Part shown: one piece after another, positions 4,546 to 51,485 of the stretch
Layout of the letters: each line of letters starts with the position of its first letter
Position numbering within the stretch: position 1 is the first letter of the stretch
NCBI GenBank assembly: GCA_003559735.1
Contig: PWKN01000001.1
Location: forward strand, 2,327 to 66,326
Reading direction: 5' to 3'
DNA: 64,000 nucleotides
Source: Bacteroidales bacterium
GTDB taxonomy: Bacteria; Bacteroidota; Bacteroidia; Bacteroidales; UBA7960
Made by a program: the position numbers and the translations under genes
The notes under the pieces: generated by a model
Told to the model about the DNA's origin: nothing
The model's database searches: none
The model's input: the letters and a program-made list of their open reading frames with translations, nothing else

Positions 4546-6027
4546 ATGCACCCTGAGCTTATTCTTTTCTCCTTCCTGGCATATACGGTTCTTCTTTTTT
4601 TTATATCAAGGCTTACCGTGCGGCGTAAGGTGGACAATGAAACGTATTTCCTTGGCAACAGGAACTCTCCCTGGTATGTGGTGGCTTATGGCATGATCGG
4701 CGCATCTTTGTCTGGCGTTACTTTTATGTCGGTGCCTGGCCTGGTGCACAATGAAGCTTTTTCCTATATGATGCTGGTAATAGGGTACCTGGCTGGGTAC
4801 GGTGTCATTGCCGGCATATTGCTGCCATTGTATTACAAACTGAACCTCACTTCAATATACACATACCTGGGCAATCGGTTTGGTTTGACTTCCTATAAGA
4901 CAGGGGCTTTGTTTTTTGTGCTCAGCAGACTCATAGGCAGTTCATTCCGTATGTTTCTGGTTGTTATCGTACTGCAGCGTTTTGTGTTTGACAATTACGG
5001 GATACCCCTCAGTGCCACGGTGTCGCTGTTTATGATCCTGATCCTGTTGTATACCCTGAAGGGGGGTATCAAAACCATTGTGTGGACAGATACGCTGCAG
5101 ACAACTTTTATGATCGGTGCGGTCATTATCAGCATCGGACTGATATCTGTGCAGTTGGATATGGGACTGGGTGAGCTGATCTCTGAATCCGGACGAAGGG
5201 GATATACTAACCTGTTTGTATGGGATGTGAACGACCCGCGTTTCTTTTTAAAGCAATTCTTTGCAGGGATGTTCATAACAATTGTGATGACCGGACTTGA
5301 CCAGGATATGATGCAGAAGAACCTGAGTTGCCGTAACCTGCGTGATGCGCGTAAGAATGTCCTTTCATTCGGACTGATCCTTATTCCTGTCAACCTGTTG
5401 TTCTTGTTCCTCGGATCTGTACTGTGGATCTATGCCGGCAACGAGGGCATTATGCTGGGCGTGGAACAGACCACTGATGAGCTGTTCCCAACCATTGCCC
5501 TTGAATACCTTGGGGTATTTGCCGGACTTACTTTCTTTTTTGGGTTGGTGTCTGCCGCCTATTCAAGTGCCGACGGCACATTAACCGCCCTGACCACCGT
5601 GTTTTGCATTGACTTTCTTGGCCTGCGGCGACGCTCCGGCGTAACCGAAAAGAAGATACGGCGCACACGGTACGTGGTTCACATTGCCTTTACCATCCTG
5701 ATGGTAGGAATAATCATCACATACAGCGCAATCAGCAATGAAGCCCTTATCAGCTCATTGTTCACAATTGCCGGGTATACGTACGGACCATTGCTTGGGC
5801 TCTATTTTGCCGGACTCTATACCAAATGGCAGATACGGGATGTTTATGTGCCTGTGGTGGCCGTTGCGTCACCGCTGGTTAGTTACCTGCTGAGCATCCA
5901 TTCTGAATGGTTGTTCAACGGATACCGTTTTGGTTTTGAAATACTTATTCTCAACGGACTGCTTACCTTGCTGGGGCTCTGGCTGATAAAAAGAAAACCA
6001 GCGAAGGGAATATCCGGGGATGCTTGA
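4546..6027 (+). CDS. Sodium:solute symporter family transporter
   Basis: About 13 hydrophobic helices and SSF-like sequence (GNRNSPWYVVAYGMIGASLSGVTFMSVPG). The ORF track starts at a TTG (4531); the first ATG is at 4546. Confidence 0.85.
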   Translation: MHPELILFSFLAYTVLLFFISRLTVRRKVDNETYFLGNRNSPWYVVAYGMIGASLSGVTFMSVPGLVHNEAFSYMMLVIGYLAGYGVIAGILLPLYYKLNLTSIYTYLGNRFGLTSYKTGALFFVLSRLIGSSFRMFLVVIVLQRFVFDNYGIPLSATVSLFMILILLYTLKGGIKTIVWTDTLQTTFMIGAVIISIGLISVQLDMGLGELISESGRRGYTNLFVWDVNDPRFFLKQFFAGMFITIVMTGLDQDMMQKNLSCRNLRDARKNVLSFGLILIPVNLLFLFLGSVLWIYAGNEGIMLGVEQTTDELFPTIALEYLGVFAGLTFFFGLVSAAYSSADGTLTALTTVFCIDFLGLRRRSGVTEKKIRRTRYVVHIAFTILMVGIIITYSAISNEALISSLFTIAGYTYGPLLGLYFAGLYTKWQIRDVYVPVVAVASPLVSYLLSIHSEWLFNGYRFGFEILILNGLLTLLGLWLIKRKPAKGISGDA

Positions 6028-6081
6028 GCAGGGCGGCCATCAAATGGCAGGTAACCCGTAACGCTCTTGCCTTCTGCTCCT

Positions 6082-7101
6082 TTAATCTACAAAGCTCACC
6101 CATCCGTGGGGATCCGGTTCTTCGCCGTACTGTATGCCCTGGAGTTTTTCATACAACCTGGTTGACCAGGGACCCGCTTTGGATGGATCGCCAAAGGTAT
6201 ATGTCTTGCCCGTTTCCCGTTCCACAATTTTCCCGATGGGAGAGATAATGGCCGCTGTACCGCATGCACCCGCTTCTTCAAAAGTTTCAAGTTCTTCTAC
6301 CGGCACTTCCCGCCTTTCTACCTTCATTCCCATGTCACGGGCGAGTTGCATCAGGCTCATGTTGGTTATTGAGGGCAATATCGAATCAGATTTTGGGGTA
6401 ATATAGGTATTGTCCCTGATCCCGAAAAAGTTTGCTGGTCCGGCTTCATCGATATATTTCTTTTCTTTGGCCTCAAGAAAGAGCACCGATGCGTAGCCCT
6501 CTGCCTTTGCTCTTTCAGAGGCACGGAGACTGCCAGCATAATTTCCACCCACCTTGATATGTCCGGTTCCAAGGGGAGCGGCACGGTCATAATCGCGAAT
6601 GATCTGCATGGTAACGGGGTTGAAGCCCTCTTTGAAATAAGGTCCGACAGGTCCGACAAACACCATGAAAAGATATTCCTTTGCAGGGTTTACGCCAACC
6701 TGGACACCGGTTCCGATCAGAAGCGGACGAATGTACAATGCTGCCCCATGCCCAAAGGGGGGGACATAGTCTTTGTTTAAGCTTACAGCTTTTGAGACCA
6801 TCTCATGGAACAATTGCTCCGGCGGCCTGGCCATCAGTATGCCATCGGCCGAACGCTGCATGCGTTTTGCATTCTCATCCCAGCGAAACAGACGTACCTT
6901 ATTGTCTTTTCCGCGATACGCCTTCATCCCCTCAAAAGCCTCCTGTCCGTAGTGCAAACAAGTTGCCGCCATATGGATGCTGATCTGCGGGGATGAGCTC
7001 ACCTCTACCTCTCCCCATTGGCCGTTACGATAATAACATCTTACATTGTAGTCGGTCTGGAAATACCCAAACGGGAGATTTCCCCAGTCTATGTTTTGCA
7101 T
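6082..7101 (-). CDS. ilvE: Branched-chain amino acid aminotransferase
   Basis: Class IV aminotransferase motifs (QEAFEGMKAYR, GGNYAGSL, EAGACGTAAIISPIG). The ORF track start at 7128 is a TTG. The ATG at 7101 gives MQNIDWGNLPFGY, the usual N-terminus. Confidence 0.9.
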   Translation of the reverse strand: MQNIDWGNLPFGYFQTDYNVRCYYRNGQWGEVEVSSSPQISIHMAATCLHYGQEAFEGMKAYRGKDNKVRLFRWDENAKRMQRSADGILMARPPEQLFHEMVSKAVSLNKDYVPPFGHGAALYIRPLLIGTGVQVGVNPAKEYLFMVFVGPVGPYFKEGFNPVTMQIIRDYDRAAPLGTGHIKVGGNYAGSLRASERAKAEGYASVLFLEAKEKKYIDEAGPANFFGIRDNTYITPKSDSILPSITNMSLMQLARDMGMKVERREVPVEELETFEEAGACGTAAIISPIGKIVERETGKTYTFGDPSKAGPWSTRLYEKLQGIQYGEEPDPHGWVSFVD

Positions 7102-36205: not shown

Positions 36206-37762
36206 ATGAAAGAAGGGAAAAAACTAAAGGCAAAGGATATTGATGCATTGATCTTTGATCTTGACGGGGTGATCACCCAAACACGGGATACGCACAAAAA
36301 GGCCTGGAAACAGCTTTTTGACAGTTTTCTGGAGGAAAGAGGGATGAATGACCGTTTGGGTGAGGGCGATTATGAAGAGTATCTTGATGGCAAGCCTCGC
36401 TATGAAGGGGTAAAAAGCTTTTTGTTGTCACGGAACATCAGTTTGCCTTATGGCAGCGAGAATGATCCGTCTGAAAAAGAGACCGTATGCGGACTGGGAA
36501 ACAGGAAAAATGAGTTCTTTAACCGGTTGATCAGTAAAGAGGGGGCAGAAGTATACGACGAGGCCGTTGCAAGCCTCAGGAAATGGCGGCGCATGGGCAT
36601 CAAAACAGCTATTGTCTCATCCAGTAAAAACTGTAAGGCCATTATCGAAAAGGCTGGGATCGATCACTTATTTGATGTGCGTGTTGATGGGTTGGTAGCT
36701 GCTGAACGCGGCCTCAGCGGCAAGCCCGATCCCACTATTTTTCTTGAAGCTGCAAGAGAACTGGATGTCCGCCCCGAACGTTCCATTGTTTTTGAAGATG
36801 CCATTTCCGGGGTGCAGGCCGGACAGCGTGGGTTTTTCGGACTGGTTGTAGGGGTGGCCCGCTTTGACAACCGCGATGAGCTGTTGCGCCATGGCGCCGA
36901 TATGTGCATTGATTCATTTGATCAGTTCGATCTGTTTGGTGATGAACATATTGCCGGCTATTTCCGGTATACAAAACCCATGGTGTTTTCGGCAGGATCA
37001 GATGTGTTTGACATACTTAAGCAAAAAAGACCTGTGTTTTTTCTCGATTATGATGGTACCCTGACACCCATCGTCAACCGTCCGGAAGATGCACAGATCT
37101 CTGCCACCATGCGCAGTACCCTGTCTGAACTGGCCGGACGGTTCACTGTAGCGGTTGTAACCGGGAGGGATAAAGAGGATGTGGAGGACTTTATCGGATT
37201 GGATCAGTTGATATATTCGGGCAGTCATGGGTTTGTAACCTCCGGACCAGGAGGTATGTATATGGAACACGAACAATCGGAAGAGATCATCCGCCAGCTT
37301 GATCAAGCAGAAAAGGACCTTCACCGGCTGCTCGACAATAAGGGTGAAGGTGTGCAGATAGAACGCAAGAAATATGCAATTGCCGTTCATTACAGGAATG
37401 CACCGGAGAAATACGTGCCGCAGGTGATGGAAAGTGTTGACCAGTTGGTGGGAAAAGGAGAATCATTGAAGAAAGGCGAGGGGAAGAAAGTGGTTGAGGT
37501 GAAACCCGACATTGACTGGCACAAGGGCAAAGCGGTATGGTGGATAATGGAGGCCCTCGGACTGGACAAACAAAAGGATACGGTCCCTGTTTTCATTGGA
37601 GATGATGTTACCGATGAAGACGCCTTCAAGGTCTTAAAAGGCAAGGGTATAGGCATACTTGTCGAAAACCGTGGCCAGGAGACCTGCGCAGACTACAGTC
37701 TTAAAAACGTGTTCCAGGTAGAGCAGTTCTTTAAAAAAGTGATTGAGTTGTACGCCGGATAA
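36206..37762 (+). CDS. Fusion protein: beta-phosphoglucomutase-like HAD domain + trehalose-6-phosphate phosphatase domain
   Basis: N-terminal half: [25 protein letters not shown] (beta-PGM motifs). C-terminal half: [31 protein letters not shown] (OtsB-type motifs). Confidence 0.85.
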
Positions 37763-37783
37763 CCAATTGGAGTTTGTCAATGA

Positions 37784-40204
37784 ATGTCATGTGAAAAAAA
37801 TCAGCTTATGAGTGAAAACAACTGGCATATAGAATATGAAGAGTGGGATGCTTCCCGGCATCCACTGCAGGAGGCATTGTGTGCACTTGGTAACGGATAT
37901 TTTGTTACCAGGGGGTCGCTTGAAATGGAAAAAGACAACGAGTACAATTATCCAGGGACATACCTGGCAGGTGGGTACAACAGGATGCAATCCAGGATCC
38001 AGGGAAAGACCATTGAGAATGAAGACCTGGTCAACTGGCCCAACTGGTTGATGCTTACCTTCAGGATTAATGGCAATAAATGGTTCAGATTGAAAGATGT
38101 GCATGTCCTCGGGTTCATTACCTCCCTGAACATGAAGGAGGGCATCATGCTGCGCAAAATGCGTTTCAGGGATGAGGAGGGTCATATTACCACCATTATC
38201 AGCAGACGCCTGGTTAGTATGGACGATTATCATGCAGCCGGACTGGAGTGGACCTTTATTCCGGAAAACTGGTCGGGTAAGCTCACCATCCGGTCGGGGA
38301 TAGACGGGAACATCATCAATAACAATGTGGAAAGGTACAGCGATCTGAACCAGGATCATATTGAAGTAACTGGCAAGGGTGACTGGAATGCCAACACCGT
38401 TTTTTTGTCGGCACGTACCAAACAGTCAGACATCAGAATGACGCAGGCTGTGCAGACAAATTTCTTTATCCACCAGGAAAACCTCCATCTGGAACAACGG
38501 ATGGTGCAGCTGAAAAACGCTGTTGCGGGCGACTATGTTTTGGAATGCAAGAAGCTGGAACCTGTCAGGATAGAAAAACTGGCCCTCCTTTATACTTCGA
38601 AAGATGTGGCGATCAGTGATCCGGTGACCGAAGCAAAGAACCGGATCACCCGGTTAACAAGCTTTGCCCGTCTTGTCCGTGACCAAAAGATGGCCTGGCA
38701 GCGTATCTGGAATTATAACGATATGGTGATCGATTCATCCGATGAGGATCAGCAGGTGGTCCGCCTGCATATCTTTCATCTTTACCAGACAGTGTCGCAC
38801 AACAGCATCGATTATGATGTTGGCATACCCGCGCGTGGGTGGCATGGAGAGAGTTACCGCGGACATATATTCTGGGATGAGTTGTATATTCAGCCATTTA
38901 TCGACCTGCACAAGCCCCAGTTGTCCCGTTCATTGCTTCTCTACAGACACCGGCGTCTCCCTGAGGCATATGAAGCAGCCAGGGAAGCAGGGTTCAAAGG
39001 AGCGCTGTTTCCCTGGCAAAGTGGCAGCAACGGCAGGGAAGAAACACAGAAGATTCACCTGAATCCTGAATCCGGACGGTGGCTTCCGGATGTCACACAT
39101 CTGCAATACCATATCAACCTTGCCATTGCCTATAATGTATGGCACTATTATCAAAGTACGGGAGATGCCGACTTTCTCAATGCATACGGGGCTGAGATCA
39201 TTTTTGGGGTGGCTTTGTTCTGGTCAGACATTGCCAGTCATAACCCCAAACGCGACCGGTATGAAATTCACGGCATTATGGGTCCGGATGAATACCATAC
39301 ACACTATCCGGGAATTGAGAAACCCGGACTCAATAACAATGCATATACAAATGTGATGGCTGCCTGGGTTATTGGCCGGGCACTCAAGTTGCTCGATCTG
39401 CTTGATGATACTTCCTGCAAAGAACTGTCAGACAAGACAGGGATCACAGAAGAAGATGTCAAACGCTGGGAGGAGATCAGCCGCAAAATGTATATACCCT
39501 TTCATGAAAAAGAGATCATTTCGCAGTTTGAAGGGTATGGCGACCTTAAGGAGCTTGACTGGGACCATTACAGGGAAAAATACGGTGATGCGATCAGGCT
39601 GGACCGTATCCTTGAAAGTGAAAACGATTCACCAAATCACTATAAAGCAAGTAAGCAGGCTGATGTGCTGATGCTGTTCTACCTGTTTTCGACTGAAGAA
39701 CTGGAAGCGTTGTTTAACAGACTGGGATACGACTTTTCACCTGGTATGATCCCCAAAAATATCGAATACTACTACCAGCGTACATCACACGGGTCAACAT
39801 TGAGCCAGGTGATCCATGCCTGGGTGTATGCGAGGAGCCACCGGCGAAAATCGTGGAAAAGCTTTAAAACGGCGTTAATGAGCGACTTTAAGGACATTCA
39901 GGGCGGGACCACGCATGAGGGTATCCATCTGGGTGCAATGGCCGGTTCGCTCGATCTGTTGCAACGCTGTTATTCCGGATTGGAGATCAGGGATGATGTT
40001 CTCTGGCTGAACCCCTGCCTCCCCGACGACATACGTTCGCTATCATTTCACGTGCGTTACCGCAGCCATTGGATCAAGCTGGATATCGGCCACAAGAAGA
40101 TCAGCGTGGCGTTTTGCAAGGGATGGGCGAACCCGGTATATATTGCCGTAAAGGGACGGAAATACTATTTTGAGACCGACGACCAGAAACAGTTTTCACT
40201 GTGA
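37784..40204 (+). CDS. Glycoside hydrolase family 65 disaccharide phosphorylase (trehalose, trehalose-6-P or kojibiose type)
   Basis: About 800 aa GH65 layout and an IHGIMGPDEYH catalytic-acid segment. An alternative start at 37808 is possible. Confidence 0.9.
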   Translation: MSCEKNQLMSENNWHIEYEEWDASRHPLQEALCALGNGYFVTRGSLEMEKDNEYNYPGTYLAGGYNRMQSRIQGKTIENEDLVNWPNWLMLTFRINGNKWFRLKDVHVLGFITSLNMKEGIMLRKMRFRDEEGHITTIISRRLVSMDDYHAAGLEWTFIPENWSGKLTIRSGIDGNIINNNVERYSDLNQDHIEVTGKGDWNANTVFLSARTKQSDIRMTQAVQTNFFIHQENLHLEQRMVQLKNAVAGDYVLECKKLEPVRIEKLALLYTSKDVAISDPVTEAKNRITRLTSFARLVRDQKMAWQRIWNYNDMVIDSSDEDQQVVRLHIFHLYQTVSHNSIDYDVGIPARGWHGESYRGHIFWDELYIQPFIDLHKPQLSRSLLLYRHRRLPEAYEAAREAGFKGALFPWQSGSNGREETQKIHLNPESGRWLPDVTHLQYHINLAIAYNVWHYYQSTGDADFLNAYGAEIIFGVALFWSDIASHNPKRDRYEIHGIMGPDEYHTHYPGIEKPGLNNNAYTNVMAAWVIGRALKLLDLLDDTSCKELSDKTGITEEDVKRWEEISRKMYIPFHEKEIISQFEGYGDLKELDWDHYREKYGDAIRLDRILESENDSPNHYKASKQADVLMLFYLFSTEELEALFNRLGYDFSPGMIPKNIEYYYQRTSHGSTLSQVIHAWVYARSHRRKSWKSFKTALMSDFKDIQGGTTHEGIHLGAMAGSLDLLQRCYSGLEIRDDVLWLNPCLPDDIRSLSFHVRYRSHWIKLDIGHKKISVAFCKGWANPVYIAVKGRKYYFETDDQKQFSL

Positions 40205-40246
40205 ACGGATGGTTTCACTGAATTGTTAAGAAAAAAACATACCGTT

Positions 40247-42439
40247 ATGAGGCTAATCATTGTGTCTAACCGTTTGCCAGTTGCTGTCAGCAACTCGAAT
40301 GGCAAATTCAGCATGGAAAAAAGTGCCGGCGGACTCGTTTCCGGGTTGAGCGATTTTCTAAAGTCATTGAAAAACAATGCCAAAGGGGTTAGAGAATACC
40401 TGTGGCTGGGGTGGCCGGGCGATAAAATAGATAAGGAAGATGAGGAGTATGTTCGTCAGAAAGTGCAAAAAGATTTTAGTGCATCACCCATATTCCTGTC
40501 AAAAAAACTTATGGATAAAGTCTATCTGGGTTTTTGCAACCGCACACTCTGGCCTCTTTTCCATTATTTTCCGAATTATGCCCATTTTGATCTTGATTAC
40601 TGGTTCGAGTATAAGCGGATGAACAAGATCTTCTGCGATGAACTGCTCAAGGAGATCAGGGATGGCGATATCATCTGGATACACGACTACCACCTGATGC
40701 TGCTGCCGGCTATGCTCAGGGAACATGTATCCAATCCCATTGGCTTCTTTTTACACATTCCTTTCCCGTCATATGAGATGTATCGGATGCTTCACAAGGA
40801 GAGCCGGACAGAAATACTTGAGGGACTCATAGGCGCTGACCTGATCGGCTTCCATACCCACGACTATACCCAGCATTTTTTGCGTTGCGTATTGCGTATA
40901 CTGGGGAAGGAAAACCATATGGGCAAAATATCGATGCCCGACCATACCGTACAGGTGGATACTTTTCCGATGGGTATTGATTTTGATAAATTTTACCTGA
41001 TGGATGTGTCACCCTTTCCTTCAAACAAGCCCGGGAGGGGTGAACCCAGGATGGTACTTTCTGTCGACAGGCTCGATTATTCAAAAGGCATCATCAACCG
41101 TTTGCTTGGTTTTGAATTGTTTCTGAAACGTCACCCTGAATGGCACGGAAAAGTGTGTATGAACATGATCGTGGTCCCCTCGCGGACAGGCGTAGGGGCC
41201 TACAGGAAGATCAAAAGCAGCCTTGATGAGCTGGTGGGTAAAATCAATGGTTCCTATGGAAGCATATCGTGGACCCCCGTTATCTATCAATATACCTCGC
41301 TGCCCCACAAAGAGCTGATCGCTACCTACCGCAGAAGCGATGTCGCCTTGCTGACGCCCCTCAGGGATGGAATGAACCTGGTGGCCAAGGAATATATTGC
41401 CTCACTGGAAGACCATAGAGGGATGTTGATATTGAGTGAGTTTACAGGGGCGGCCAAAGAGTTGAGCGAGTCACTGGTGATCAATCCCAACAACATAGAT
41501 GAAATTGCAGAAGCCATAGAAGAAGCCCTGAATGTGCCAATGAAACAACAGATCAGGGGGAACAAGATCATGCAGAAACGCCTCAGACGCTACAATGTTA
41601 CGAAATGGGCCAATGATTTCGTGAACAAGCTGGTGGAAACCAGCCATATATCAAGGGACTCGGTGAGCAGGAAACTACTGAATCAGTCGTTGCTTCAACG
41701 GTTGACCGGTAATTTCAGAAAAGCAAAAAGCAGGATCATTATTGTGAATTACGACGGAACATTGGTGCCCTATACAAAATACCCGGCTTCAGCAGAACCA
41801 CCGGAAGCGTTGCTTAGACTGTTGAAAAACCTTGATGCACAAATCGAGACCGATATAGTGATCATAAGCAGCAGGGGGAAAGATGAGCTGGATGAGTGGC
41901 TTGGCGGACTCCCATTGAATCTGACGGCAGAACATGGCTCGTGGATACGCGAAGCAAACAACAATGAGTGGGCGTTGCTGAAACCCCTTTCATCTGAATG
42001 GAAAGAAGAGGTATTACCCATACTGGAAATGTATACTGACCGGCTTCCTGGCTCGTATATACAAGAACGGGATTATTCAGTCGCATGGCATTATCATAAG
42101 TCAGACATAGAACAGGCATCCCAATTGGTAAAAGAGGTGAATGACCATCTGTTGTCGATAACCACAAACATCAGTGCCCATGTGATCCACGGAAGTAAAG
42201 TGATAGAAGTCAGCAATTCAGGCATTAACAAAGGAGAACTTGCCATGCACTGGCTGTCACGAAAAGAGTATGATTTTATCCTTGCCATCGGCTCCGGCTG
42301 GTCTGATGAGTTGTTGTTCCAGACCATGCCCCCACATGCCTGGTCAATAAAAGTAGGGCTGGCACAAACGGCTGCCAATTATGTCGTTAAGGGACAAACC
42401 GATGCCATTGCCATTTTGGACAAACTCAGAGATCACTGA
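40247..42439 (+). CDS. otsA: Alpha,alpha-trehalose-phosphate synthase (GT20) fused to a degenerate trehalose-phosphatase-like domain
   Basis: MRLIIVSNRLP start, GFFLHIPFPS, VDRLDYSKGI, MNLVAKEY (OtsA). C-terminal domain is HAD-like but reads VNYDGTL and GSGWSDE where DxDGT and GDDxTDE are expected. The ORF track start at 40223 is a TTG. Confidence 0.9.
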   Translation: MRLIIVSNRLPVAVSNSNGKFSMEKSAGGLVSGLSDFLKSLKNNAKGVREYLWLGWPGDKIDKEDEEYVRQKVQKDFSASPIFLSKKLMDKVYLGFCNRTLWPLFHYFPNYAHFDLDYWFEYKRMNKIFCDELLKEIRDGDIIWIHDYHLMLLPAMLREHVSNPIGFFLHIPFPSYEMYRMLHKESRTEILEGLIGADLIGFHTHDYTQHFLRCVLRILGKENHMGKISMPDHTVQVDTFPMGIDFDKFYLMDVSPFPSNKPGRGEPRMVLSVDRLDYSKGIINRLLGFELFLKRHPEWHGKVCMNMIVVPSRTGVGAYRKIKSSLDELVGKINGSYGSISWTPVIYQYTSLPHKELIATYRRSDVALLTPLRDGMNLVAKEYIASLEDHRGMLILSEFTGAAKELSESLVINPNNIDEIAEAIEEALNVPMKQQIRGNKIMQKRLRRYNVTKWANDFVNKLVETSHISRDSVSRKLLNQSLLQRLTGNFRKAKSRIIIVNYDGTLVPYTKYPASAEPPEALLRLLKNLDAQIETDIVIISSRGKDELDEWLGGLPLNLTAEHGSWIREANNNEWALLKPLSSEWKEEVLPILEMYTDRLPGSYIQERDYSVAWHYHKSDIEQASQLVKEVNDHLLSITTNISAHVIHGSKVIEVSNSGINKGELAMHWLSRKEYDFILAIGSGWSDELLFQTMPPHAWSIKVGLAQTAANYVVKGQTDAIAILDKLRDH

Positions 42440-43370
42440 CGGTTGATGGCGGGTCCCCTGTCTGTTTATTGACCGCTACCCTGGTCTTTGGCAAACAATG
42501 TGGATATTCCCGCTGGATAAACTCCACGAGTTTTTCCCTTATATATACCCTGAGTTCCCAGGCATCGGGAGAGTTTGCCGCACTCATGAGTGCCCTGATC
42601 TCCAATGTGTGTTCCCGGGCATCGGTAACCTGCAATACATTCACTTTCTTATCCCAGTATTTGCATGATTCCAGCAACCTTGTAAGCTCGGTTCGCAGGG
42701 CATTAAGCGGAATGGTATAATCAGTATAGATGAATACCGTACCCAGTATGTCGGCAGAGGTGCGTGTCCAGTTCTGAAAGGGCCTCTCCATAAAATAGGT
42801 GGTGGGGACAACCAGACGGCGTTTGTCCCAGATCCTCACAACAACATAGGTAAGGTTGATCTCATCGATCCACCCCCATTCATTTTCCACGATCACCACA
42901 TCGTCCAGCCGGATCGGCTGGGTGATCGCAATCTGCAGTCCGGCGAGGATCGTGGCCAGCGCTTTCTGCGCAGACAGTCCGATGACCAATCCGGCGATCC
43001 CTGCCGAAGCAAACAAACTGATGCCTATGCTGCGGACTGCCTCGAATTGCATCAGGGTAATGCCAATGGCGATGACAATAATGATGAATACCAGGATCTT
43101 TTCTATAATGTTGTATTGGGTGTGCAACTTACGCACCTGAAGGTTGTCAGATACGCTCATGTCGTATCGCCTGAGTAAGCTGACCTTGGCAGCACGGATC
43201 AGGGCAATTATCGTCCAGGTTACGGCTGCAGCAAATAAAATATGCCCGGATACATGGATGGTCCGGTATACCTCGGCCGGAAAATCATTCAGGTACTGAG
43301 CAATGATGTTTGCTGATAACCCAAGTATGAATAACAATGCAGGCAGCAAAAAACGTTTCATTGTTCGCAT
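42426..43370 (-). CDS. Mechanosensitive ion channel (MscS family)
   Basis: Three to four TM helices followed by an MscS beta-domain-like segment (ITQPIRLDDVVIVENEWGWIDEINLTYVV). Its 3' end overlaps otsA by 14 nt. Confidence 0.85.
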   Translation of the reverse strand: MRTMKRFLLPALLFILGLSANIIAQYLNDFPAEVYRTIHVSGHILFAAAVTWTIIALIRAAKVSLLRRYDMSVSDNLQVRKLHTQYNIIEKILVFIIIVIAIGITLMQFEAVRSIGISLFASAGIAGLVIGLSAQKALATILAGLQIAITQPIRLDDVVIVENEWGWIDEINLTYVVVRIWDKRRLVVPTTYFMERPFQNWTRTSADILGTVFIYTDYTIPLNALRTELTRLLESCKYWDKKVNVLQVTDAREHTLEIRALMSAANSPDAWELRVYIREKLVEFIQREYPHCLPKTRVAVNKQTGDPPSTVSDL

Positions 43371-43416
43371 ATCGTATTCTTTTCAATGGTAATAAGATAT
43401 TTTTTTTGCGCAGATT

Positions 43417-43424
43417 CAAAGGTA
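43417..43424 (-). promoter_or_regulatory. TAnnTTTG (-7 type) promoter motif for the MscS gene
   Basis: The reverse strand reads TACCTTTG, 47 nt upstream of ATG 43370. Confidence 0.35.
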
Positions 43425-43670
43425 TGGATTATATCGCGCATATGCAAAGTTTGTCTTTTTGCCCAGCACCCCAGTTAGTTTCCATACCTTGTTGTCTCCC
43501 TCACTCGTCTGGTTCACGGCTGGTTTGTTCAATGTGCACTTTTTGTTTTCAGGGGGTGTGTCCGGACAGTAAAGGCTGCCCTGACTGCTTTCAATTATTC
43601 TTGTTATGGTCGGTCGGACTATAATGTTTATATATGATATAAAAAAATTATTTGGTTTATAAAATAAAAT

Positions 43671-43678
43671 TATATTTG
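43671..43678 (+). promoter_or_regulatory. TAnnTTTG (-7 type) promoter motif for the 203-aa orphan
   Basis: TATATTTG in a very AT-rich 90-bp stretch, 30 nt upstream of ATG 43708. Confidence 0.45.
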
Positions 43679-43707: not shown

Positions 43708-44319
43708 ATGATATTCAGAAGATTTATACAAAAACACATTCCGGGATTACGGGTGTTGCCTATCAGTACCGAACAATTTGTTCCGGGGGTGATCCTCGAC
43801 CGTGAAAAATTGCGTTTGATGGGTCATTGCAGGGAAATACTGCATGATGAACCGGAATCAGCCTGGACCTACACCCTGTCGAAAGCCAGTATGATCTATG
43901 GTACAGTACAGGCTGACAGGAAGCTGGGAGGCGGGGTAAAAGTTCTGGGTATAATTTCCTTACGGAGCGGCTATCTCGACGATATCCGTGTACATATAGA
44001 TATCAGCGAGGTACGTGGAGCTGCGCTTGATATGTACCAGATGGAGCTGCAACCAAAACTGAATGCATTGCGAAAGACTGATCGCCGGGGACGATGGCGG
44101 CTGATTAACGACCACCTGGTGGTTATGGAAACTTACTATGCAAGCAAGTTCAAGGCAACTTTCTACAGGAAGAATCAGCTACTTGCCAGGGCCGATCTGG
44201 ATGCCATTGCAACACTGGACCTGGAGGGACACATTGAATACCAGTGGGAAACCGACCACTCACTGGTGGTTGCCAACAATGAGCATGTCCCTTTTGGTGT
44301 ACGTGGATTTGTCGTTTGA
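43708..44319 (+). CDS. Hypothetical 203-aa protein; possible gasdermin-like beta-rich fold (unverified)
   Basis: Clean ATG ORF with its own promoter motif, no TM helix and no signal peptide. See findings for the sequence resemblance. Confidence 0.65.
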   Translation: MIFRRFIQKHIPGLRVLPISTEQFVPGVILDREKLRLMGHCREILHDEPESAWTYTLSKASMIYGTVQADRKLGGGVKVLGIISLRSGYLDDIRVHIDISEVRGAALDMYQMELQPKLNALRKTDRRGRWRLINDHLVVMETYYASKFKATFYRKNQLLARADLDAIATLDLEGHIEYQWETDHSLVVANNEHVPFGVRGFVV

Positions 44320-44377
44320 CAACCGTGTTTTTCCATTATTTTGAATGAATGCCCATGGCCGGTTGAACAAATTCCTG

Positions 44378-44385
44378 TACTTTTG
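44378..44385 (+). promoter_or_regulatory. TAnnTTTG (-7 type) promoter motif for the DUF3127-like gene
   Basis: TACTTTTG 38 nt upstream of ATG 44423. Confidence 0.4.
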
Positions 44386-44422
44386 TCCGTTGATGTTCTG
44401 ATGGTATAAACAAAATCCGGAT

Positions 44423-44809
44423 ATGATGGAAATAAGTGGAACCATTCTTTCAGTTTTGCCAGAGCAAAGTGGTGAAGGCCGCAACGGTCCGTGGCGCAAA
44501 CAAGATTTTATCATTGAAACAGGTGGACAATTTCCCAGGAAGGTATGTGTCAGTGTATGGGGCGACAAAATTGACCAGTTCGGCGTGAAGGAAGGCGAGC
44601 ATATAACAGCGTCTGTTAACATTGAAAGCCGCGAGTTCAATGGCAGGTGGTATACCGATGTGAAGGCCTGGAAGATCGGCAGACAGCAAAGCGCTGAGGA
44701 AGTTCAGGCCGGGTCTTCTGCCAGTGGCACGCCACCACCTGTGGAGGCTCCTCCCCCTTCAGAAGAACCTTTGCCTCCGCTCAGTGAAGAAGATGATCTT
44801 CCCTTTTAA
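44423..44809 (+). CDS. DUF3127-like OB-fold protein with SSB-type acidic C-terminal tip
   Basis: MEISGTILSVLPEQSGEGRNGPWRKQDFIIET...ESREFNGRWYTDVKAWKI (DUF3127 pattern from memory), then a Pro-rich linker ending in EEDDLPF. Confidence 0.75.
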   Translation: MMEISGTILSVLPEQSGEGRNGPWRKQDFIIETGGQFPRKVCVSVWGDKIDQFGVKEGEHITASVNIESREFNGRWYTDVKAWKIGRQQSAEEVQAGSSASGTPPPVEAPPPSEEPLPPLSEEDDLPF

Positions 44810-44845: not shown

Positions 44846-46270
44846 ATGGATCCAGACTCATTTCGTCATTATGGACACCAGTTTGTTGACTGGCTGGCCG
44901 ACTATTTCGAACATATCGGGCAACTCCCGGTAAAGTCTGCCGTAAAACCAGGCGATATCCTATCCAAACTGCCTGTTGAACCGCCTGTTTCAGGGGAATC
45001 AATGGATGACATATTTGTAGACTTTCAGCAGGTCATACTTCCCGGGATGACCCATTGGCAGCATCCGGGTTGGTTTGCCTATTTTCCCGCAAACAACAGT
45101 CCGCCATCGGTACTTGCCGAAATGCTGACCGCCGGACTGGGTAGTCAGTGTATGAGCTGGCAAACATCTCCCGCTGCAACGGAACTGGAAGAACGTGTCA
45201 CCGGTTGGCTCCGGCAAATGATCGGACTGCCTGACCATTTTAAGGGGGTCATACAGGATACGGCATCAACTGCGACACTGTGTGCCTTGCTGTCGGCGAG
45301 GGAACATGCAACCGGATTTGATGCAAATATGCGTGGGATAAAGGATCCGCTGACTGTGTATGCCTCTTCCGAGACACACTCAAGCATCGAGAAAGGGATG
45401 AAGATCGCCGGATTTGGGAGGGATAACCTTCGTCTTGTTGATACAAGGGATGATTTTTCCATGTGTCCGAAAGCACTCGAAAAAGCGATGGCACGCGACA
45501 TTGAAAATGGGATCAAACCCTCATGTGTCGTTGCAACACTGGGAACAACTTCGTCAATGGCCATGGATCCCGTTGATGAGATCGGACCGTTGTGCAAAAA
45601 ATACAAAACCTGGTTGCACGTAGATGCGGCATTTGCCGGTACTGCTGCGTCAGATCCGGATCACCGGTGGTTTATGAGCGGGACAGAACAGTGCGACTCC
45701 TTTGTGTTTAACCCGCATAAATGGATGCTGACCAATTTTGACTGCTCGGTCTATTTTGTAAAAAATGCCGGTATCCTGTTGCGTACCCTGGGCATTCAAC
45801 CTGAATACCTTAAGACAGGGGCCGATCAGCAGGTAAATAACTACCGGGACTGGGGGATACAGCTTGGACGGAGGTTTCGTGCCCTGAAGCTTTGGTTCGT
45901 GATCAGGTATTATGGTGTGGACGGAATTCGCAAAATGGTGAATAAACACATTGATCTGGCTGCATTGTTTGCAGAGTGGATAAAAGCCGATCCCCGGTTT
46001 GAATTGATGGCGCCTCAGCAACTCACGCTGGTGTGTTTCCGGTTAAATCCCGGAAACCTCCCGGAGAAGGAACTGCAGCGGGTCAATGAGGCTCTTCTTG
46101 ATGAAGTGAATAGTTCGGGGGAAGTATTTCTGACACATACCATGCTCAGGGGCAAATACTGTTTGCGGATGTCTGTCGGACAGCGTACCACAGACAGGGT
46201 TCACGTGCAGAAGGCCTGGGACCTTATCAGGAAGCCGGCAGAAAAACATCGAACCCCATACCCCGGGTGA
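44846..46270 (+). CDS. Group II PLP-dependent aromatic-L-amino-acid/tyrosine decarboxylase
   Basis: HWQHPGWFAYFP, DTASTATL, and FVFNPHKW (PLP-lysine motif). 474 aa. Confidence 0.9.
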   Translation: MDPDSFRHYGHQFVDWLADYFEHIGQLPVKSAVKPGDILSKLPVEPPVSGESMDDIFVDFQQVILPGMTHWQHPGWFAYFPANNSPPSVLAEMLTAGLGSQCMSWQTSPAATELEERVTGWLRQMIGLPDHFKGVIQDTASTATLCALLSAREHATGFDANMRGIKDPLTVYASSETHSSIEKGMKIAGFGRDNLRLVDTRDDFSMCPKALEKAMARDIENGIKPSCVVATLGTTSSMAMDPVDEIGPLCKKYKTWLHVDAAFAGTAASDPDHRWFMSGTEQCDSFVFNPHKWMLTNFDCSVYFVKNAGILLRTLGIQPEYLKTGADQQVNNYRDWGIQLGRRFRALKLWFVIRYYGVDGIRKMVNKHIDLAALFAEWIKADPRFELMAPQQLTLVCFRLNPGNLPEKELQRVNEALLDEVNSSGEVFLTHTMLRGKYCLRMSVGQRTTDRVHVQKAWDLIRKPAEKHRTPYPG

Positions 46271-46727
46271 TCAGCGTAAACAACCACTCCAGCCGGGGGT
46301 AGAGCATGCTTCCCGACCGCATCTCTTCTGAGATCAGATTCTGGCCATGATCAAAAAAATCGATCACCATAAATAAAACAGCCAGTATCAAACCCCATTT
46401 GATCAGGCCAATTCCAAATCCGGCGAAACGGTTAATAAACCCCAGCATCAGCGCCTTGAAAATATTGGTGAGCAACAGTCCAAACATACGTACCAGTAAG
46501 ACCACAATGACAAAAACAATAATAAACACTGCGATCTGCACAAGACGGGTATTCCAGCTGAACAGGTTTTCAATGATGTTGCTGAATATGATGGCTGCCA
46601 GTATGGCAATAAATACACCGGCAACCAAGCCGGCAAGCGTCGCCGTTTCATGAAAGAACCCTTTCTGAAATCCCCTGATGGCACCAAGGAGCAATACAAG
46701 GGAGATGATGATGTCGAGTGTATTCAT
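46227..46727 (-). CDS. cvpA: CvpA family membrane protein
   Basis: 166 aa with four TM helices and an N-terminus LDIIISLVLLLGAIRGFQKGF typical of CvpA. Its 3' end overlaps the decarboxylase by 44 nt. Confidence 0.8.
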   Translation of the reverse strand: MNTLDIIISLVLLLGAIRGFQKGFFHETATLAGLVAGVFIAILAAIIFSNIIENLFSWNTRLVQIAVFIIVFVIVVLLVRMFGLLLTNIFKALMLGFINRFAGFGIGLIKWGLILAVLFMVIDFFDHGQNLISEEMRSGSMLYPRLEWLFTLITRGMGFDVFLPAS

Positions 46728-48509: not shown

Positions 48510-51485
48510 ATGAATGTTCCTCTGGTAAAAATCAAAGAATACTGGACAACAGGACCCTTGTTTGTTCCGTTATCCGGAAACGGTCACTTTTCTGGTGGCG
48601 GTCTTCCTTTGCTGCATTTGTGCAGACTTGTGTTGTTGGTTCTGTTTTCCTGCTGCCAGCCTGCTTTTGCTGCACCTCCCCAATCAATACCATTGCATGC
48701 TGCCATGGAAAGCCATGCCGTACTGCCTGGACACATTATTTTTAAACTCACCCCAGAAGCACAAGAACAAAAAGGGGGACTGGAGCTATTGTCAGAACAT
48801 ATCAATGGCTTGTCGGGCACCAAGATCATGAACAGCCCCTACAGGCTGTTCCCCCGGCACGATGCCCCATCAGGGAAATCTCTTGCTGCCGGCCGGCCAT
48901 TGGTTGACCTTTCAAGGATCTATGAGGTGGTGATTGATGACCATGACCGCTTACCGGATGTGATCACAGCCATTGCATTGACTGGTTTGACCGAATATGT
49001 GCAACCACGGTTTATCCCGGAAACGCAACATTTCATTAAAGAACATACAGATACTGTATATGTGCCGAATGATCCCATGGCACCCGATCAGTATTACCTC
49101 GACAACATTGCGGCTTACCAGGCGTGGGCAATATCGCGGGGCGACACCAACACGGTGATTGCCATCGTTGATACCGGTGTTGACCTGTACCACCCTGACC
49201 TGGTCAATGCAATCAAATACAATTATGACGACCCCATCAATAGTGAAGATTCAGATGGTGACGGCTACATTGACAATTTTCACGGATGGGATCTGGGTGA
49301 GGGAAATAATGATCCAACCTTTAACCGGTCTGCCCATGGTCTGCATGTATCGGGCATTGCTGCTGCCAGTGCCGATAATGACGAGGGCATCGCCGGTGTC
49401 GGTTTTCATTCAAGGTTCCTCCCCGTAAAGGTTGATGACGAGTTTGGCCGTCTGGTCAAAGCATACGAAGGGATTGTCTATGCTGCCGATCAGGGTGTTG
49501 ATGTTATCAACTGTTCGTGGGGCAGCCACTTTTACCCTGGTCCGTTTGGCCAGGACATTATTGATTATGCAGTTTTTAACAGGGATGTGCTGGTTGTGGC
49601 CGCCGCAGGCAATGCCAATTCATCACAGCCATTTTATCCTGCCTCTCTGGATCACGTTGTAAGCGTGGCAGCTACCGATACCTTCGACAGGAAAACCGGG
49701 TTCTCAAGCTATGGTGCGTTCGTTGATGTTACAGCTCCAGGCATTGGCATAAAATCAACCTGGGTATACAATACCTATATGTCGTCGGGAGGGACCTCCA
49801 TGGCTTCACCGATCGTTGCCGGTGCCGCCGCCATCCTCAGGTCGTATTATCCAGCATATGACGCCATGCAAATTGCTGCCCTGTTAAAACTGTCGTCCGA
49901 TCCTGTTGATGAGGTGGAGGGAAACGCTGACTATGGCGGACAATTGGGGTATGGGCGTATCAATTTGCTGAAAGCACTCACCGAAACCGGACGACCTTAT
50001 GTCCGTGTCGTTGAAGACCTGTCTGGCGAAGAGAACCTTAAGGCAGTCAGACCGGGTGATCAGTTTGAAGTGGCGGTGCAGTTTCTAAACATCCTGGCCC
50101 CTGCCGGTAATGTTTCGGCTGTGCTCACAACCCCGTCAGACTACCTTGATGTACTAACGGATACGTTGTGGTTTGGCGGACTGGATAGTATGGCGTTGAC
50201 CGACAATGCCGCCAGCCCTTTTATTGTGAATGCCTTGTCTGACTTGCCTGTAAACCATGAAACCATTTTTACCATTTCCTTTTTTGACGGCGGCGGACAG
50301 ACCATTGGCCGCCACGCTTTGCGTCACGTGCTGAATTCTGACTATGTCAACATTCATGCAGGGGCCATCACCACAACCATTTCATCACTTGGTGCATTGG
50401 GATTTAACTATCCGTATTATTCACAGGGTAAAGGCCTTTTGTATAATAACGGCTATACCATGCTGCAATGTGGCGGTATAGTGGTTGGCAACAGCGTTGC
50501 CCACGTTGTTGATAATATATACGGGGCCCGGCAGGGAAGCTTCAGTGAGGTGCTGAAGCCACTCAGGTATCCGCGTGTGCACACCACCCATCCGGTCGCT
50601 CCGATCAAGGTGAGTGGCAGTGTCACTGACCAGACCGGTAACCACAGCGGTCCGCTGAACGTAGAAATCAGCTACAGGGCATACTTCTGGGATGACAATC
50701 CTGCAGAAGACTTTTTTATTCTGGACTATGCGGTCATCAACCATTCAGAAAAGACATACAATAACCTGTATGCAGGTTTTTTTGCTGACTGGGTGCTGCG
50801 AAACAACAAAATGCATCGCGCCGGCATCCATGTGCCCGCCAGACTTGCTTATGCATTTTCTGAGGAGGGTGGTCACTATGCAGGGATCCAATTGCTGACC
50901 GGCGGGGGAATGCGGCACTATGCTTTCGATAAGCAGGGAGCAGGGGGGAGTATGCAGATCAGCAAGGGATTTACAGATTTTAAAAAATTTACCGCACTCA
51001 CTTCAAACCGCTTCCAGGCGGGCCATTACAAGGACGACAACAACATTTCGTCGCTGCTGAGCAGCGGACCACATTTTGTTCACCCGGGCGATACGGTAAT
51101 GGTTTCTTTTGCAATCCACCTTGCTGAACATTTGCCGGATATGATAAAGAATACTGAAAAAGCCAGGGAATATTATCATATGCTGGAGAGCATACCTACT
51201 TCTGTTTCACCGCCTCCGCTGCTGGCACAGCCTGAGCTGCTGAAGGCTTACCCGAACCCTTTTTCCAGCCAGCTCACCGTCAGCATTAATGGTGAACCGG
51301 GACACCTTTACAGGCTGACGATGGCCGACCTGTACGGAAGAAAGGTCTATGCCGGTAATGTGAGACCCCTGGCAGATATGGAGAAAAAGGTAAAAATTCC
51401 TGTCCGGGGACTGCATCCGGGCATCTATGTCATCAGACTGGATAATGGATATGAAAATGCCGCTGTGCGGGTGATTAAATGGTGA
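48510..51485 (+). CDS. Subtilisin-like S8 serine peptidase with C-terminal T9SS sorting domain
   Basis: Catalytic triad contexts AIVDTGVD, SAHGLHVSGIAAA, GGTSMASPIVAGAAA. C-terminus LKAYPNPFSSQLTVSI...GIYVIRL...VIKW (Por secretion tail). Confidence 0.92.
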   Translation: MNVPLVKIKEYWTTGPLFVPLSGNGHFSGGGLPLLHLCRLVLLVLFSCCQPAFAAPPQSIPLHAAMESHAVLPGHIIFKLTPEAQEQKGGLELLSEHINGLSGTKIMNSPYRLFPRHDAPSGKSLAAGRPLVDLSRIYEVVIDDHDRLPDVITAIALTGLTEYVQPRFIPETQHFIKEHTDTVYVPNDPMAPDQYYLDNIAAYQAWAISRGDTNTVIAIVDTGVDLYHPDLVNAIKYNYDDPINSEDSDGDGYIDNFHGWDLGEGNNDPTFNRSAHGLHVSGIAAASADNDEGIAGVGFHSRFLPVKVDDEFGRLVKAYEGIVYAADQGVDVINCSWGSHFYPGPFGQDIIDYAVFNRDVLVVAAAGNANSSQPFYPASLDHVVSVAATDTFDRKTGFSSYGAFVDVTAPGIGIKSTWVYNTYMSSGGTSMASPIVAGAAAILRSYYPAYDAMQIAALLKLSSDPVDEVEGNADYGGQLGYGRINLLKALTETGRPYVRVVEDLSGEENLKAVRPGDQFEVAVQFLNILAPAGNVSAVLTTPSDYLDVLTDTLWFGGLDSMALTDNAASPFIVNALSDLPVNHETIFTISFFDGGGQTIGRHALRHVLNSDYVNIHAGAITTTISSLGALGFNYPYYSQGKGLLYNNGYTMLQCGGIVVGNSVAHVVDNIYGARQGSFSEVLKPLRYPRVHTTHPVAPIKVSGSVTDQTGNHSGPLNVEISYRAYFWDDNPAEDFFILDYAVINHSEKTYNNLYAGFFADWVLRNNKMHRAGIHVPARLAYAFSEEGGHYAGIQLLTGGGMRHYAFDKQGAGGSMQISKGFTDFKKFTALTSNRFQAGHYKDDNNISSLLSSGPHFVHPGDTVMVSFAIHLAEHLPDMIKNTEKAREYYHMLESIPTSVSPPPLLAQPELLKAYPNPFSSQLTVSINGEPGHLYRLTMADLYGRKVYAGNVRPLADMEKKVKIPVRGLHPGIYVIRLDNGYENAAVRVIKW

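Follow-up and report, generated by a model that had tools for sequence, protein, structure and literature searches.

How can a gasdermin be restrained and released in a bacterial cell when it has no tail that a protease could remove? The question is raised by a gene at positions 43708-44319 of a 64,000-nucleotide stretch of contig PWKN01000001.1 (assembly GCA_003559735.1) from a Bacteroidales bacterium. The whole stretch is called the window below, and the product of the gene, with a length of 203 amino acids (aa), the window protein. In all characterised bacterial gasdermins (bGSDMs) known to us, a protease removes a short C-terminal peptide and a palmitoylated N-terminal Cys aids insertion. 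The family of the window protein breaks both parts of this rule, while the fold and the finger-forming regions are kept. The window protein is a minimal, divergent member of the gasdermin superfamily, and it is read here as a cleavage-independent membrane-permeabilising protein. The activity is a prediction, and the reading as a whole is given a probability of about 0.5.

The earlier note on this DNA, made from the letters alone, had described an open reading frame (ORF) of 203 aa, and its coordinates, strand and quoted sequence were all confirmed exactly. No transmembrane helix and no signal-peptide-like stretch could be detected in the window protein (highest 19-residue Kyte-Doolittle mean: 0.94), and its sequence marks it as a cytoplasmic protein. 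The gene occurs as a single copy in the window's clade, and no second copy (paralogue) was found within the 64-kb window. The gene and the parts of its product that are needed for the argument are the following (both models: the two AlphaFold models described further on):

43708-44319, + strand: tail-less gasdermin-like coding sequence (ORF call; 203 aa; ATG start, TGA stop at 44317-44319)
43714-43737, + strand: basic amphipathic N-terminal helix, aa 3-10, FRRFIQKH (family: FxRFIRKH), assigned by DSSP in both models
43891-44019, + strand: proto-finger region 1, aa 62-104, aligned to Vitiosangium beta3-fingertip-beta5; holds the Gly-rich KLGGGVKVLGIISL and IRVHIDISEV
44170-44289, + strand: proto-finger region 2, aa 155-194, aligned to Vitiosangium residues ~160-210
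44290-44316, + strand: terminal strand PFGVRGFVV, aa 195-203, the family hallmark; aligned to Vitiosangium V212-I220

A resemblance to the gasdermin pore-forming domain had been recognised by eye, and it was borne out by profile searches. The PADLOC bGSDM profile, for which there is no curated cutoff, matches the window protein over residues 31-199 with E=7.9e-8; it hits 40 of 42 close homologues as well, and among the wider relatives 44 of 71. An exhaustive HMMER search returned 82 cluster representatives, nearly all of about 200 aa, and 71 of these make up the wider-family profile and alignment to which the family counts below refer. The protein can thus no longer be called an orphan, as it had been at first, since 43 close homologues and the 82 cluster representatives exist. 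When the PDB was searched with the 71-member family profile, the Vitiosangium bGSDM (7n51/8sl0) was matched with E ~1e-9. Positions 9-206 of the profile align to residues 11-220 of the Vitiosangium chain, i.e. near full length, and the Runella and Bradyrhizobium bGSDMs are matched more weakly. Neither the single sequence nor a close-family profile gave a significant gasdermin match in the PDB; such a match was obtained only once the family profile had been widened.

The pairwise identity to the solved bGSDMs is 12-17%. Sub-threshold matches to NCBIfam prok_gasdermin occur in 28 of the 71 relatives, and distant members of the family have weak precomputed Pfam matches to Bact_GSDM. In a Pfam search of ten relatives nothing reached the threshold, and weak Pfam matches to DUF535 and SH3_12 were taken as noise. 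Profile searches against gasdermin models had been proposed in the earlier note: the PADLOC and family-profile matches are positive, whereas the NCBIfam cutoff was not reached and Pfam missed the protein. In the alignment based on hidden Markov models (HMMs), stretches of the window protein and of the Vitiosangium bGSDM are paired as RVLPISTEQFVPGVIL / VVRLPREGIQPLHLL, as LVVMETYYASKF / YVITQVIKSNEF and as VPFGVRGFVV / LVFGFKCFEI. The motif pairs that had been drawn by eye are reproduced by this alignment to Vitiosangium, but their mapping onto human GSDMD has indirect support only, from the fold (Foldseek match to GSDME, E=7e-3). All in all, the homology of the window protein to gasdermins can hardly be doubted.

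The prediction of the structure, followed by a Foldseek search, had likewise been proposed, and gasdermins were placed at the top for two independent models. The AlphaFold model of the window protein, built from an alignment of 42 sequences, has a predicted local distance difference test score (pLDDT) of 88.9 and a predicted template-modelling score (pTM) of 0.83. In the PDB, 7n50, 7n51 and 7n52 come out on top (E 3e-5 to 2e-4), and these three bGSDM crystal structures are matched with a probability of 1.00 and a TM-score (TMq) of 0.48-0.56. The pore and slinky forms of bGSDM are next, followed by GSDME (E=7e-3) and TrichoGSDM, and the top ten consist of gasdermins throughout. The second model is that of P0051, a relative with 29% identity. 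It has a pLDDT of 87.5, the same order of secondary-structure elements and the same Foldseek list, with 7n51 at a TMq of 0.60. In both cases all solved bGSDMs are at the head of the list, and most of the places after them go to other gasdermins. A viral structure library, searched as negative control, gave no matches. For both models the TMq is higher with the inactive bGSDM (0.56-0.60) than with the pore form (0.41-0.45). As modelled, the window protein takes the resting (soluble) form of a gasdermin pore-forming domain.

The terminal strand contains P195 in 71/71 members of the family and F196 in 62/71. The latter pairs with F213 of Vitiosangium, and the F213A substitution partly disrupts the function of that bGSDM (PMC10153256). 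P26-G27 is conserved as well (69-70 of 71 members). The active form of the Vitiosangium bGSDM ends at residue 237 and the full-length protein at residue 266 (PMC10153256). In the tail-less family, the C-terminus lies 0-12 residues past the PFGVRGF strand in every member of the 71-sequence alignment, all 70 representatives included. The lack of a C-terminal inhibitory tail, which had been noticed in the window protein, is therefore a trait of the whole family. The orthologues stop at the same position with TGA, TAA or TAG, and the frames downstream are neither open nor conserved. As all three stop codons are used and no downstream frame is conserved, readthrough, frameshift and truncation artefact can be excluded, and a tail hidden behind readthrough or a frameshift was ruled out. 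In the window itself, the frame stays open for 29 more codons past the TGA (44320-44406, QPCFSIILNECPWPVEQIPVLLSVDVLMV); this extension is present in no orthologue and is regarded as chance.

The second missing element is the lipid anchor. In the bGSDMs studied so far, the N-terminal Cys is palmitoylated, and the C4A substitution inactivates the Vitiosangium bGSDM in cells (PMC10153256). The family of the window protein lacks both this N-terminal palmitoylated Cys and the C-terminal inhibitory peptide of the characterised bGSDMs. The sole Cys of the window protein, C41, was considered as a redox or lipidation switch. A Cys is found at that position in 7 of 71 members and L, A, I or V in most others, and the switch was ruled out because the position is hydrophobic across most of the family.

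What is left are the N-terminal helix and the finger regions. Averaged over the family, the hydrophobicity of the N-terminal helix has an alpha-amphipathic periodicity. This helix corresponds to the alpha-1 'thumb' of gasdermins, and it may be the membrane-docking element that replaces the absent palmitoyl-Cys. Proto-finger region 1, which has the lowest pLDDT of the window model (72), is aligned to a part of the Vitiosangium bGSDM where V89 is the fingertip and F111 the beta5 knuckle (PMC10153256). In the soluble model, part of proto-finger region 2 forms a helix (H161-167), as is to be expected of a proto-finger; the region is the counterpart of the alpha4/beta7' region of bGSDMs. The latter refolds into beta7-beta8, and overall helices and short strands of the bGSDM refold into four membrane fingers (PMC10153256). 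In the tail-less family, the family-averaged hydrophobicity follows a strict hydrophobic-polar alternation (h-p-h-p) in aa 62-104 and 155-194. The mean beta-moment of aa 158-180 amounts to 1.67, a value that is reached by the best-scoring segment of 6 out of 2000 column shuffles. This beta-amphipathic alternation coincides exactly with the regions that are aligned to the bGSDM fingers. By their sequence pattern alone, the two regions would fit amphipathic membrane strands, as expected.

The following course of events may be proposed for the cleavage-independent protein. It would be produced from its own promoter and be soluble in the cytoplasm, as a monomer with the resting gasdermin fold. Docking on the acidic inner leaflet of the cytoplasmic membrane would be brought about by the basic amphipathic N-terminal helix and by a basic, nearly invariant DRRGRWR patch. 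Upon a trigger, aa 62-104 and 155-194 would refold into amphipathic beta-hairpins. The protomers would then oligomerise to a beta-barrel pore, thereby permeabilising the cell's own membrane. As there is no tail to remove, the restraint must come from sources other than cleavage. It could be provided by the stability of the resting fold in the absence of a lipid anchor, by the expression level, or by the need for a trans-acting or physicochemical trigger. In molecular dynamics simulations, the Vitiosangium bGSDM without its C-terminal domain (CTD) stays in the resting fold, and the exit of the palmitoyl is the first step of insertion (PMC10153256). Since the CTD-less Vitiosangium protein is stable in simulation, a tail-less and lipid-less protein could be stable until it is triggered. 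Since the exit of the palmitoyl comes first, a protein without lipid anchor would face a higher barrier to insertion.

Can the surroundings of the gene tell how such a protein is used? As the earlier note had it, the gene is placed between an MscS-like gene (PF00924, upstream) and a DUF3127 gene (PF11325, downstream). The neighbours that matter here are:

42426-43370, - strand: MscS-like channel gene (PF00924), divergent; not a conserved neighbour
44423-44809, + strand: DUF3127 gene (PF11325), a frequent co-directional downstream neighbour
44846-46270, + strand: group II pyridoxal phosphate (PLP)-dependent decarboxylase gene, a frequent co-directional downstream neighbour
48510-51485: S8 subtilase of 991 aa with a C-terminal sorting domain (Por_Secre_tail) of the type IX secretion system (T9SS), 4.2 kb downstream; the nearest protease

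The 43 close homologues have 51-62% identity and are almost all exactly 203 aa long. A scan of species-representative genomes gave 17 loci, from 16 uncultured Bacteroidales metagenome-assembled genomes (MAGs) and one Cytophagales MAG (42% identity), and a metagenome scan mostly returned the same clade again. The isolate or sample names (CSSed, T3Sed, B1Sed, SL_*KL_SED) presumably stand for hypersaline soda-lake sediment metagenomes. In about 20 loci from 17 species-level genomes, a conserved block is formed by the gasdermin-like gene, DUF3127 (optional) and the group II PLP decarboxylase. It continues with CvpA, EVE (some loci) and holA on the opposite strand, and then HSDR_N_2. The upstream neighbours differ by locus and are MscS with trehalose genes, Aldedh, or Aminotran_4. 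The divergence of the gasdermin-like gene (51-62% identity) is similar to that of ordinary neighbours such as CvpA, HSDR_N_2 and S8, and about that of the faster-evolving housekeeping genes around it.

The earlier note had found no protease adjacent to the gene, and this is true of the window and throughout its clade: neither a protease nor a defence gene is adjacent in any of the approximately 20 loci, and there is no protease within ~4 kb. PADLOC gave no matches on the neighbour genes, and no relatives were found in viral contigs. The fixed synteny, the empty partner slot and the neighbour-like divergence together imply that in the window's clade the gene is inherited vertically on the chromosome, rather than being a mobile defence cassette. 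A phage origin was rejected, as there are no relatives in viral contigs or among viral structures.

Two observations concern the arrangement of the block. In three loci (L013, L023 and L025, with the gene at 6001-6609), the downstream block is inverted or moved, and the gasdermin-like gene lies exactly at the boundary of the rearrangement. In the window, the PLP decarboxylase gene (end 46270) and CvpA (46227-46727, - strand) are convergent, and their 3' ends overlap by 44 bp.

Several neighbours were considered as functional partners. DUF3127 and the PLP decarboxylase are not supported as such: each is absent in part of the loci, and a separate promoter element precedes DUF3127 (see below). 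The S8 subtilase is unlikely as activating protease, given its T9SS sorting domain and its absence from several loci: about half of the orthologous loci have it there, and the others have DUF5723 in its place. From its sequence, it is probably an exported protein that is unrelated to the gasdermin-like gene. An osmotic valve, suggested by the MscS and trehalose genes nearby, is not supported either, as the upstream neighbours vary. The cluster in question looks like one for osmoadaptation, covers 36206-43370 and stands beside the gene in only some orthologous loci. Apart from the MscS-like gene it consists of:

36206-37762: HAD/trehalose-phosphatase fusion
37784-40204: GH65 glycoside hydrolase or phosphorylase
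40223-42439: fused trehalose-6-phosphate synthase/phosphatase, overlapped at its 3' end by 14 bp of the MscS-like gene

The spacer between the MscS-like and the gasdermin-like gene has a length of 337 bp. The GC content of its final 100 nt is 20%, compared to 48% in the gene and in the window, and the spacer includes a putative promoter element:

43671-43678, + strand: TATATTTG, a Bacteroidota-type -7 element (TAnnTTTG), 29 nt 5' of the ATG

The TAnnTTTG consensus is well established for Bacteroides promoters. In the whole window it was observed 35 times with 38 expected, i.e. without enrichment, so that little weight can be put on the motif by itself. Most orthologous loci, however, have this element or its GATATTTG variant 28-30 nt 5' of the ATG. 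It is this phylogenetic footprint, in an AT-rich spacer, that upholds the earlier suggestion of a promoter of its own. Because the DUF3127 gene has its own TACTTTTG element at 44378-44385, the gasdermin-like gene is probably monocistronic. No intrinsic terminator was found near the gene, and Rfam and tRNA scans of the window gave nothing. A Cys-rich ORF of 95 codons (43337-43624, + strand) overlaps the start region of the MscS-like gene and is probably spurious; no Rfam family was found at 43337-43624, in the GC-richer half of the spacer.

The picture is different in the other clades of the tail-less family. The earlier note had suggested looking for recurring proteases or sensors near the homologues: this gave nothing in the window's clade, whereas other clades do have partners, including a C25 peptidase. 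Four sister clades (P0051, P0134, P0125/P0126 and P0045) resemble the window protein in their length of about 200 aa, the PFGVRGF terminus, the lack of a tail and of an N-terminal Cys, and the same predicted fold. They differ from the window's clade, which has no partner, in their tightly linked partners in conflict-type cassettes.

The gene for P0051 (204 aa; L041:8001-11636) is directly followed by one for a 503-aa Peptidase_C25 protein (37.2 bits in Pfam, with a cutoff of 23). Peptidase_C25 is a caspase-like family of clan CD, and the 503-aa protein carries the motifs FFNCHGD and AAECCYG. An 83-aa ORF and a 383-aa membrane protein come next, and the set adjoins a contractile-injection-system cluster (L041:1-6061). 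P0134 (L042:1-11004) is followed at a gap of 2 bp by a DUF900 alpha/beta hydrolase and then by a 415-aa protein, and two giant ORFs of 2062 and 2084 aa, without Pfam match, lie in front of it. Farther downstream, a helix-turn-helix (HTH) protein is encoded together with a reverse transcriptase (RVT_1), as well as an HNH gene, and the setting resembles a defence island. P0125/P0126 (212 aa, weak Pfam Bact_GSDM matches) are part of a co-directional cassette of an HNH-like gene (104 aa), the gasdermin-like gene and pYEATS (347-348 aa). This cassette is located at L027:2571-4662, directly after KwaA/KwaB (Kiwa), and at L028:514-2586. It is possibly a new defence-system architecture; no link between pYEATS and gasdermins was found in a literature search of incomplete coverage. 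P0045 (202 aa, ~40% identity), the nearest outgroup of the window's clade, heads a cassette at L043:3011-5589 and also in L044. It is followed by a 249-aa protein with a faint Cu_amine_oxidN1 match, a methyltransferase dependent on S-adenosylmethionine (194 aa) and a protein of 193 aa; a GT4-conflict glycosyltransferase is encoded upstream of the cassette.

Homologues of the C25, pYEATS, DUF900 and small HNH partners are found neither in the window nor in the approximately 20 orthologous loci. The family overall looks like a conflict-system effector that can be paired with several partners; in the window's clade, a partner in cis was lost or was never there.

How far, then, can the window protein be expected to form pores? 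A number of results weigh against it. The window protein scores 14.3 bits with NCBIfam prok_gasdermin, where the cutoff is 100, and it has no Pfam match to Gasdermin or Bact_GSDM at E up to 10. The TM-scores of 0.5-0.6 indicate a fold that is clearly related but considerably remodelled. In the HMM alignment, fingertip 1 is ~9 residues shorter than that of Vitiosangium. A Cys within the first 12 residues is present in 0/71 family members. Finally, a fixed housekeeping neighbourhood and an ordinary-looking promoter are unusual for a suicide effector and fit a non-lytic role equally well.

The last points lead to the alternative that survives best, namely that the protein has kept the gasdermin fold but is no longer lytic: it would have been domesticated and would act at the membrane in housekeeping or under stress. 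Lipid or membrane binding and a small, regulated, sublytic permeabilisation are examples of such a role, and pejvakin, a member of the gasdermin family with doubtful pore function, offers an analogue. This is a tentative explanation, to be taken seriously although it is on the unlikely side. The fixed housekeeping position in 17 or more species-level genomes, the constant length, the absence of a partner and a divergence like that of ordinary neighbours would all suit a domesticated gene, as would a location outside defence islands and the absence from viral contigs. In addition, the family lacks the lock (tail) and the lipid anchor that are required for killing by bGSDMs. The beta-amphipathic alternation in the finger regions, on the other hand, is family-wide and present even where the model is helical, which is hard to explain without membrane insertion. 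The conservation of the F213 equivalent also speaks against a loss of the lytic function, and the sister clades in conflict-type cassettes, one of them with a C25 peptidase, argue for an ancestral activity as death effector.

Alternatively, the protein could be a conventional trigger-activated effector that depends on an activator from another part of the genome: a protease with a cut that is not C-terminal, a partner or an inhibitor in trans. Such a system has its model in the 29%-identical and tail-less P0051 with its Peptidase_C25 directly behind, and in the clades with the tightly coupled pYEATS or with DUF900 at a 2-bp gap, and the inspection of this genome covered 64 kb. It is nevertheless improbable. 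In none of the clade's genomes is the partner slot filled, and no homologues of the known partners turn up in the window or the orthologous loci. No obvious exposed and conserved cleavage loop can be recognised in the model either, whose pLDDT stays at 72 or above, with no segment under 50, and the S8 subtilase 4 kb away is sorted by the T9SS and not present in all loci.

That the gasdermin similarity is spurious and the protein an unrelated beta-rich one, as the low identity to solved bGSDMs, the missing Pfam match, the NCBIfam score far below cutoff and the empty single-sequence PDB search might suggest, is effectively refuted by the near full-length profile match to 7n51/8sl0, the PADLOC matches in 44/71 relatives and the two models that both rank solved bGSDMs first with an empty viral control.

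If the window protein does form pores, a gasdermin domain would be restrained and released without proteolysis in bacteria, as was recently found for the proteins of Trichoplax and fungi. The size of the smallest gasdermin unit known would come down to ~200 residues, and one lineage would have made a cell-death effector a fixed, ordinary gene of its chromosome. A further step would be to see in it the first proteolysis-free bacterial gasdermin, i.e. a tail-less and lipid-less pore former of the core genome that serves a lineage of Bacteroidales in its normal physiology and is gated physicochemically or in trans. This is speculative and is put forward as an unlikely, but consequential, proposal. 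Were it true, regulated self-lysis or release, or a stress-triggered permeabilisation in an extreme saline-alkaline habitat, are examples of what the protein could do. The ~200-aa family would then be a second regulatory class of prokaryotic gasdermins with diverse partners (C25, pYEATS, DUF900). If the protein does not form pores, it would represent a rare domesticated gasdermin fold in prokaryotes. In either case, the partner-linked sister clades (C25, pYEATS, DUF900) are ready-made systems for finding the activation mechanism. A literature search returned no tail-less, Cys-less bacterial gasdermin of ~200 aa and no protease-free one, in a coverage that was incomplete and leaves room for a prior description.

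Among known systems, the bGSDMs from Runella, Bradyrhizobium, Vitiosangium and Lysobacter are the first to be compared (Johnson et al. 2022, 2024; PDB 7n50, 7n51, 7n52, 8sl0, 9a84). The window protein shares their resting fold (probability 1.00, TMq 0.48-0.60) and a near-full-length profile homology. The order of the elements is also the same: the alpha-1 thumb, the palm sheet, and two proto-finger regions with some helical structure in the resting state. Like the bGSDMs, it keeps the F213 equivalent and is a cytoplasmic protein without signal peptide. With 203 aa it is smaller than the bGSDMs (240-270 aa), as it lacks the inhibitory peptide of 17-67 aa altogether and, from the active domain, the last ~17 residues. 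The N-terminal palmitoyl-Cys is absent as well, and fingertip 1 is shortened by about 9 residues. An adjacent protease accompanies 43/50 bGSDMs and is lacking here, and the gene belongs to a conserved core synteny instead of a defence island or mobile element.

The second comparison is with TrichoGSDM from Trichoplax and RCD-1 from Neurospora (Li et al. 2024; PDB 8jyv, 8jyw, 8jyy, 8jyz), which are cleavage-independent eukaryotic gasdermins consisting of the N-domain only (PMC13475620). The structural likeness to them is weak (Foldseek E 3e-3 to 0.5), and the window protein is shorter than either by ~40-50 residues. TrichoGSDM is locked by an intermolecular disulphide, whereas the window protein has only the single, clade-specific C41 at a buried hydrophobic position. 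The bacterial cytoplasm, moreover, is a reducing environment. RCD-1 requires two incompatible alleles, and the window gene has no paralogue within the 64-kb window. The lock of TrichoGSDM is not shared by the window protein, and the 64 kb covered show no counterpart of the two RCD-1 variants either. What it does have in common with these proteins is the overall design, as it consists of the pore-forming domain alone: there is no inhibitory C-terminal part, and activation can therefore not consist in the removal of a tail.

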